Shown here: one piece after another, positions 62,478-62,805 of the stretch | Layout of the letters: every line of letters begins with the position of its first letter | How positions within the stretch are numbered: position 1 is the first letter of the stretch | Origin: Mytilus californianus | Taxonomy: Eukaryota | DNA length: 64,000 nucleotides | Assembly: GCF_021869535.1 (NCBI RefSeq) | Contig: NW_026262690.1 | Location: 42,594,001 to 42,658,000, forward strand | Direction of reading: 5' to 3' | Notes under the pieces: generated by a model | Database searches by the model: none | What the model was told of the DNA's origin: nothing | What the model saw: only the letters and a program-made list of their open reading frames with translations | Program-made: the position numbers and the translations under genes

Positions 62478-62805
62478 TTATTTCATAAGTATGTTGGACA
62501 AGGTTTTACTAGATACCATCTTTGCAAACAAACAATTTGGATCCCATTTTATATGTTCTGTTTCGATATCGTCTTCTTTAGTCCACTTTTTTAGAGTAAT
62601 GTCACAATAAAAACATGTCACTCTATCTCCTATATCGGTGTAAAAAAAAACCATTATGAGCTAGATCTTCTGGCTTTTGTTTAATCTGATCCGGCCAATT
62701 TGTATATGTTTGCATTCTATTTGTGAAATACATCATATTCAGATGGGCTGGTTTGAAACGGAGGATGTCTGAAAAGTAACATCCCGAGTCTGTTTCTAAA
62801 TCCAT
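62478..62805 (-). pseudogene. Single-BIR-domain IAP-like gene with a +1 T in a homopolymer (108 aa if corrected; pseudogene or assembly error)
   Basis: RMQTYTNWP...LAHNGFF, then after removing one T from the T9 run at 62642-62650: YTDIGDRVTCFYCDITLKKWTKEDDIETEHIKWDPNCLF. This is the exact C-x2-C-x16-H-x6-C BIR motif. Confidence 0.88.

Follow-up and report, generated by a model that had tools for sequence, protein, structure and literature searches.

Within a 64,000-nucleotide stretch of the Mytilus californianus genome (hereafter the window), a Polinton carries a short gene for a BIR protein of the inhibitor-of-apoptosis (IAP) type, and the gene is interrupted by a frameshift. The locus raises the question of whether this gene is a selected component of the element or a passenger captured from the host, whether the frameshift has a function, and what the encoded protein would do.

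The BIR gene and the Polinton around it

The gene is read on the minus strand, and the following features were located in it.

62478..62805, minus strand: gene of about 108 codons for a stand-alone protein with one BIR (IAP-like) and without a RING; the copy here is frameshifted
62532..62615, minus strand: zinc-binding motif C-x2-C-x16-H-x6-C with the type II residues E, H, W and C (from the sequence and the rule of PMC8917759)
62642..62650, no strand assigned: homopolymer run where the frame breaks, length-unstable (four lengths among 10 copies)
62785..62799, minus strand: leader motif L-E-T-D-S, like an initiator-caspase (caspase-8/10) site (from the sequence and PMC2764853)

According to the ORF translation, the 5′ part starts with the ATG at 62805 and is stopped after 60 codons; it matched positions 1-30 of the Pfam BIR profile (E 5e-4). 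The 3′ part, which is read in another frame and ends with the TAA at 62478-62480, matched positions 28-69 (E 4e-15; 56.5 bits by itself), and the frame switch falls inside a run of nine A on the plus strand (62642-62650). The two frames were joined with X at the break, and the resulting protein of 108 residues contained one full BIR (PF00653; 79.8 bits against a cut-off of 22.9; E 2e-22) and neither a RING nor any other domain by Pfam scan. RMQTY..WP, LA..GFF and C-x2-C-x16-H-x6-C were all found. The stop codon follows 17 codons after the last Cys, so that there is no space for a RING. A profile score over the curated cut-off together with the zinc motif places the protein in PF00653, and the C-terminal RING of cellular/baculovirus-type RING-IAPs is lacking in Pfam scans. 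The sequence-only reading had described a full BIR signature without a RING, split over frames at a homopolymer, and the score of the joined protein and the two half-matches in differing frames bear this out.

The gene is located 324 nt inward of the right terminal inverted repeat of a 19.8-kb Polinton (43658-63464), the 336-nt arms of which are 100% complementary. The element has AGT-repeat ends and GTTATA duplicated on either side; the (AGT)2 end motif and a 6-bp target duplication have been described for Mavericks (PMC8097293). Terminal repeats, (AGT)2 ends and 6-bp duplication, together with an integrase, a packaging ATPase and a maturation protease (Pfam rve, Pox_A32 and Peptidase_C5), identify it as a Polinton/Maverick (adintovirus). 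The earlier claim that the stand-alone BIR is borne by a Polinton is thus confirmed by perfect terminal repeats and a target duplication that enclose the gene. The other features of the element are as follows.

43658..43993, no strand assigned: left terminal inverted repeat, with GTTATA just before it (43652-43657)
63129..63464, no strand assigned: right terminal inverted repeat, with GTTATA just after it (63465-63470)
61986..62390, minus strand: 134-aa ORF, usual downstream neighbour of the BIR gene, no Pfam match
61614..61931, minus strand: conserved 105-aa ORF, flanked by the 134-aa ORF and the integrase, kept among copies
60260..61366, minus strand: retroviral-type integrase with chromodomain (Pfam rve, E 8e-11)
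58033..59355, minus strand: 440-aa ORF, putative major capsid protein (by size and position; 99 genome matches)
57524..58036, minus strand: adenain-type maturation protease (Pfam Peptidase_C5, E 3e-5)
56754..57524, minus strand: A32-type packaging ATPase (Pfam Pox_A32, E 4e-5)
52834..56088, minus strand: putative protein-primed DNA polymerase B, main ORF (1084 aa; by size, order and motifs)

No naming match to the 440-aa and 1084-aa ORFs was obtained in Pfam, PHROGs or PDB. Their names as putative capsid and putative polymerase rest on size, order and motifs that we take to be those of such proteins.

Several further observations were made on the element. The putative polymerase frame (51180-56088, minus) ends right after two conserved motifs with a GT donor behind each, and these donors recur in the diverged subfamilies L104 and L108, the first being missing from L106; this pattern suggests that a Polinton polymerase gene has conserved spliceosomal introns, and intact vertebrate Mavericks have been reported to be intronless (PMC8097293). 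At the end of the polymerase main ORF, 52648-52857 matches a dispersed host repeat at 35627-35843 and is likely a small element nested in a putative intron. Between the BIR gene and the terminal repeat, an 89-codon stop-free frame (62833-63102, minus) persists in copies with as little as about 63% identity and is possibly a small gene. Elsewhere in the genome, the integrase-to-terminal-repeat end including the BIR gene is tandemly duplicated with zero differences (L007 and L008, G000:C89:9199485-9206296), and contig C24 (G000:C24), with many putative Polinton capsid matches of several clades, is a possible Polinton hotspot.

Copies of the gene, the homopolymer break and selection

A DNA search of the same genome with the BIR gene gave 24 matches; the 17 closest copies were aligned, 15 of which cover the whole gene. 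Nine of these 15 are open (107-108 codons), with all four zinc ligands in eight; two are identical tandem partners. The other six are broken, all at the same homopolymer run, and fall into three classes by frame (L001 and L003; L004; L009 and L014), while L013 has the run as in the window plus a second break upstream. L001 is nearest to L004 (2 substitutions over about 1.6 kb) yet belongs to a different class; therefore, the breaks arose independently. A control run outside the gene (63079-63088) has five lengths among nine copies, and two shorter runs are almost stable. One shortened class was also seen as a protein predicted from short-read contigs (P0124). At the run, the contigs of three out of three independent sequencing runs depart from the window in the way seen in the open siblings, such contigs losing rare variants.

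That six of 15 close copies are broken at one run could point to a programmed frameshift or a phase-variation switch giving a short and a long product. Against such a switch stand the three break classes in non-sister copies, the open majority, the equal variability of the run outside the gene, the contigs of the three independent runs and the open frames of diverged subfamilies. Because nine of the 15 copies are open and the control run is equally variable, the run is not a site of programmed slippage; this candidate, highly improbable in our estimate, was rejected on the copy survey and the control run. Among the three accounts left by the sequence-only reading (sequence error, true mutation or slippage site), the slippage site is therefore eliminated, and the break in the window copy is probably a replication slippage that followed insertion, or else an assembly error. 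In either case it is incidental to the gene.

Further BIR subfamilies with 55-65% identity and open frames of 104-118 codons were obtained by protein search. The order BIR, 134-aa ORF, 105-aa ORF and integrase is kept in them, and three were traced on to protease, ATPase, capsid and polymerase. For the genome-wide comparison, 84 capsid places were defined from 99 matches after merging of split ones, and 38 BIR places were defined as those at 53% identity or more among 122 matches (150 of 243 candidates scored). Of the putative capsid places, 30 reach 53% identity and 54 fall below it; a BIR was present within 12 kb of 27 of the former and of none of the latter. By direct profile scan, no BIR was detected within about 10 kb on either side of the capsid gene in eight distant elements, nor in the upstream 10 kb of three related capsid places; the latter indicate that the gene can be lost. 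Ten BIR places are without a nearby capsid match. The BIR gene thus marks one Polinton (adintovirus) clade, in which its position is constant, with the terminal repeat on one side and the integrase block on the other.

Pairwise dN/dS among nine representatives could be measured for 18 pairs and was 0.08-0.29 in 17 of these; the remaining one, a pair within a subfamily, had 1.07. In 18 more pairs, synonymous sites were saturated. Between the five closest siblings, 2-3 nonsynonymous and 0-1 synonymous substitutions were counted, as drift after insertion predicts. Constraint between lineages together with neutral siblings indicates that selection acts during the spread of the element and not on resident copies. 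The sequence-only reading had required of its proposal that the gene not be confined to this copy, and that its copies not all be disabled without purifying selection; the gene is present in multiple copies that are often open, and it is subject to purifying selection.

Some loci depart from the usual arrangement. At G000:C13:74405340 (L038, L112), a BIR protein identical to the Polinton-borne one is encoded with the other Polinton genes absent in 9.9 kb, and this copy is solo or deletion-derived. At L063:3001-5512 (G000:C13:71605521), a broken BIR of 42% identity adjoins homologs of the 134-aa ORF and the integrase; judged from these neighbours, the locus appears to be a further Polinton lineage with a BIR gene. 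A metagenome scan gave eight loci, two of which belong to the Polinton BIR family and have the 134-aa neighbour. In IMG/VR, the family patterns detected no member of the family, and the 77 loci obtained with a broad pattern all lacked Polinton-like neighbours.

Relatives of the Polinton BIR and the bivalve IAP count

A profile search returned 129 proteins of similar length, including DAC81342.1, a protein of 102 aa that is annotated as 'IAP [Mytilus Mediterranean mussel adintovirus]' and shares 54% identity with the query across 94% of the query's length. Trees were constructed from the 67-residue BIR core (443 rows and 259 rows) with FastTree and IQ-TREE, and the Polinton copies, DAC81342.1 and unnamed short homologs formed one clade (0.83-0.86 in FastTree, 87 by SH-aLRT). 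Clade, size and single-BIR layout place the window gene in the Mytilus adintovirus IAP family. The kind of gene is already known, adintovirus/Polinton IAP homologs having been published (PMC8502044) and the family being in GenBank as DAC81342.1; the novelty first ascribed to the gene was overrated, since both precede it.

None of the 40 BIR cores from other loci of the genome, which were taken as host genes after the surroundings of two had been checked, fell inside the Polinton BIR clade. Non-Polinton BIR matches were at most 51% identical, and at most 43% over near-full-length matches. The neighbouring branches consist of other short stand-alone BIR proteins with unstable support; a 51-tip node received 0.94 in FastTree and 0 in IQ-TREE. 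Because the deeper nodes are unstable and the tree is unrooted, no donor or direction of transfer is claimed. A weak search for a RING-bearing clade member among longer proteins found none, and the ESM Atlas gave generic BIR clusters only. Four clusters (P0079, P0087, P0094 and P0099; 38-886 members) of unnamed 130-160-aa stand-alone BIRs branch next to the Polinton family and may be cargo of other elements.

These data also bear on the possibility that the gene is a neutral passenger, namely a recently captured fragment of a host IAP. The host does possess many IAP genes as potential sources. However, the non-Polinton BIRs lie outside the clade at the low identities given above, and synonymous sites are saturated between subfamilies whose proteins are still 55-65% identical. 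A neutral captured host fragment was ruled out by the selection and synteny data and is barely credible. The related proposal, that the element provides a route by which BIR genes move, stands in so far as copies are carried around the genome as cargo; a seeding of host IAP families by them does not, host BIRs being outside the clade.

A second BIR family was encountered in other contigs. In a 1.9-kb metagenome contig (L057), a 137-aa BIR (L057:742-1155) has a PC4 gene on one side and an adenain-type protease gene on the other, and it links to a 'BIRC8-like' protein of R. philippinarum (46% over 125 columns, including an FG-rich tail). In a 207-kb viral contig (L213), a 250-aa single-BIR ORF (L213:9983-10735), likely OsHV-1 ORF99, lies beside a DNA polymerase-like ORF; among the proteins compared, its best matches were P0086 and the L057 ORF (51-53%), followed by cellular BIRs (49-50%). 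The L213 ORF groups with this second family (L057, P0086 and P0090) at a tree support of about 0.84, and FG-bearing tails are present in L213 and L057. The similarity is only suggestive of kinship between the L213 and L057-type BIRs, and that Polinton-type elements swapped BIR genes with the oyster herpesvirus is conceivable but doubtful.

Some members of the Polinton family carry host-gene annotations. In M. coruscus, two models named BIRC7_8 fall into it, with P0379 inside the clade; one of these models runs on into sequence 41% identical to the 134-aa neighbour, and the other does not. In T. granosa, several annotated family copies are in one cluster. In the hard clam, 42 intronless single-BIR genes among 159 IAPs have been attributed to retroposition, and DNA transposons are enriched around IAP genes overall (PMC7831173). 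In the 28 of 49 clade 1 rows of Table S11 of that study that were available, 23 of 28 genes are single-exon, and 11 of the 28 have the same 408-bp CDS on six chromosomes with less than 1 FPKM in all samples. Mavericks are given as the largest DNA transposon class of the hard clam (PMC8905726). Dispersed IAP duplicates have been credited to transposition, with Polintons not invoked in the accessible part of that paper (PMC13159474), and bivalve Polinton ORFs are described as often annotated as eukaryotic proteins, with IAPs not mentioned in the accessible part of that preprint (10.1101/2025.04.19.649669).

By these descriptions, the near-silent single-BIR 'retrogenes' of the hard clam would fit Polinton cargo. 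The wider proposal, that bivalve Polintons have long carried single-BIR genes as selected cargo and that a sizeable part of the 'IAP expansion', above all the 42 clam retrogenes, is endogenous virus, appears to us evenly balanced. Four short family motifs had no match in 11 of the 16 supplementary files of the oyster IAP paper (PMC8917759), and because of this no link is drawn between the Polinton family and the intronless single-BIR genes of the oyster. No paper tying bivalve IAP expansion to Polintons was found by title or abstract, in a search that also missed PMC8502044 and subscription papers; in the literature found, the caspase-8-like leader motif and the annotation of relatives as host BIRC7_8 genes were likewise absent. 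If the proposal is true, counts and evolutionary accounts of bivalve IAP expansion include viral cargo.

Type, fold and proposed action of the protein

Type II BIRs are recognized by E/Q76, H77, W/H80 and C84 (numbering of PMC8917759), and the Polinton BIR agrees with this rule through E83, H84, W87 and C91. Across 21 homologs, E83, H84 and C91 do not vary, and at least 90% have W87. A structure model of a naturally open sibling copy, built with a 94-row alignment, reached a pLDDT of 87.5 (47 with a 21-row alignment), with a pLDDT of 51 in the leader. The nearest folds were cIAP1-BIR3 and DIAP1-BIR2, including complexes with caspase-9, Smac, Grim, Hid and Dronc peptides (TM 0.72-0.82), and a complex of cIAP1-BIR3 with histone H3 was also among the matches. 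In survivin (BIRC5), position 80 is His and the C-terminal helix is long. The Polinton BIR is not survivin-like in that it has Trp at position 80, a short tail and best matches to NAIP, cIAP and DIAP1 BIRs, and survivin was absent from the closest fold matches listed.

We therefore favour, with some confidence, the reading that this is a conserved accessory gene of one Polinton clade, the RING-less type II BIR of which probably damps apoptosis by binding peptides with an IAP-binding motif (IBM); the binding and the damping are what we infer. The protein would be active during excision of the element and its replication as linear DNA, and it would serve as a sink for Smac/DIABLO-like IAP antagonists or for processed caspase N-termini, by which the host's own RING-bearing IAPs would be spared. 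A leader of the LETD/S type could be an added caspase decoy or switch. Ubiquitin-ligase action by the RING route is excluded because the RING is absent. Active baculovirus IAPs are reported to bind cellular IAPs and stabilise them (PMC4966970). They carry a RING, and some of them do not inhibit apoptosis (PMC4966970); the absence of the RING here and these non-inhibiting members may be counted against the anti-apoptotic reading, as is the fact that type II grooves also take non-apoptotic partners, e.g. histone H3.

Expression is barely detected, another point against the anti-apoptotic reading: one confirmed RNA run (about 6% sampled) gave four reads in 6 kb, none on the BIR gene, and a run only guessed to be RNA gave a 932-nt contig across the BIR and 134-aa genes, the terminal repeat being without depth. 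Neither a conserved TATA box nor a polyA signal was retained as a candidate for the BIR gene, a TATA-like site being present in only two of nine representatives.

The fold matches also allow a non-apoptotic use of the groove, in which the protein binds histone H3 or another N-terminus, tethers element DNA to chromatin, or tunes NF-kB. Linkage of the gene to a chromodomain integrase and the BIR3-histone H3 structure among the matches agree with such a use. Survivin, a single-BIR protein that acts in mitosis, is a further point in its favour. The Trp in place of His at type II position 80, the absence of survivin from the matches listed next to cIAP1-BIR3 and DIAP1-BIR2, and the lack of type I (TRAF/TAB1-binding) residues by the rule of PMC8917759 speak against it, and we judge it unlikely. 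Very unlikely in our estimate is a dominant-negative or pro-death factor that rivals host IAPs to release particles: the lack of a RING would suit it, and Op-IAP sensitises Drosophila S2 cells to apoptosis according to a reference title in PMC4966970, but the gene adjoins the integrase block away from the capsid block, and the BIR genes of OsHV-1 are early and classed as apoptosis inhibitors (PMC12705076).

The leader was scored by a strict rule (hydrophobic-[ED]-[TSA]-D-small) in 42 proteins, five further ones being too short. Motifs of the LETD-S, VETD-S and IDTD-A types were found in 18 of 42 leaders by the strict rule and in 26 by a loose form, leaving 16 without even the latter; the controls gave 0/194 in windows of the same proteins, 2/383 upstream of cellular BIRs and 0/95 in large DNA viruses, and since the rule was chosen post hoc from the alignment and the members are kin, these counts are not probabilities. 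The motif is also present in two more distant proteins with different leaders. LETD is a caspase-8/10-optimised tetrapeptide substrate (PMC2764853), and caspase sites are known in insect IAP leaders (PMC4966970). From the sequence pattern, the caspase-like leader is a lead, and a built-in initiator-caspase decoy in the BIR protein is a tentative possibility.

A stronger version makes this the main function, i.e. a two-site initiator-caspase decoy or a caspase-switched IAP in which the leader is cut after Asp and the BIR holds the processed caspase. The excess over near-empty controls, the recurrence in distant proteins, the optimised LETD, the insect precedents and the predicted disorder of the leader in the model would all favour it; on the other side, the pattern is post hoc among kin, 16 leaders lack the motif, the variants MEVAP, MEVNT and QIEMS point to an acidic start motif of a general kind, and cleavage would remove just six residues. 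As a main function it is rather unlikely. In the host caspase genes, the frame breaks after the catalytic motif, apparently at an intron.

Under the favoured reading, a selected anti-death accessory gene is the type of host-interaction gene expected of viruses. The real infection cycle that the sequence-only reading took to be implied does not follow from it, a block of apoptosis being equally useful for intracellular copying; the Polinton BIR provides a handle on whether Polintons have an infectious phase, without settling it.

The protein can be compared with several known systems. The clade 1 intronless single-BIR IAPs of the hard clam (Song et al. 2021, PMC7831173) are likewise single-exon, dispersed genes with one BIR, but were published as host retrogenes, and the likeness rests on gene descriptions rather than sequences. 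ORF42, 87, 99 and 106 of OsHV-1 are also mollusc-virus BIR genes, early and classed as apoptosis inhibitors (PMC12705076), with fold matches at 30-34% identity, but do not belong to the Polinton BIR family. The baculovirus IAP-3, entomopoxvirus and iridovirus IAPs are viral BIR proteins of the same fold, some of them anti-apoptotic (PMC4966970), but typically have two BIRs and a RING, lie outside the clade and show the leader motif in 0/95. The BIRs of cIAP1 (BIR3), DIAP1 (BIR2) and XIAP share the fold (TM 0.72-0.82, rmsd 0.8-2.0 A for most top matches) and the E/H/W/C residues, whereas the Polinton BIR is stand-alone, without RING, UBA or CARD, is 29-39% identical to them and has a short acidic leader. 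For the Mytilus adintovirus IAP DAC81342.1, the accessible text of Starrett et al. (2021, PMC8502044), in which adintovirus homologs of Bcl2 and IAP were observed, gives the IAP one sentence and a map label, without copy survey, selection test, BIR typing or function. DAC81342.1 starts with MDLDS, whereas the window gene has LETDS; with its 102 aa, single BIR, lack of a RING and 54% identity, it falls in the same clade as the window gene in both trees.
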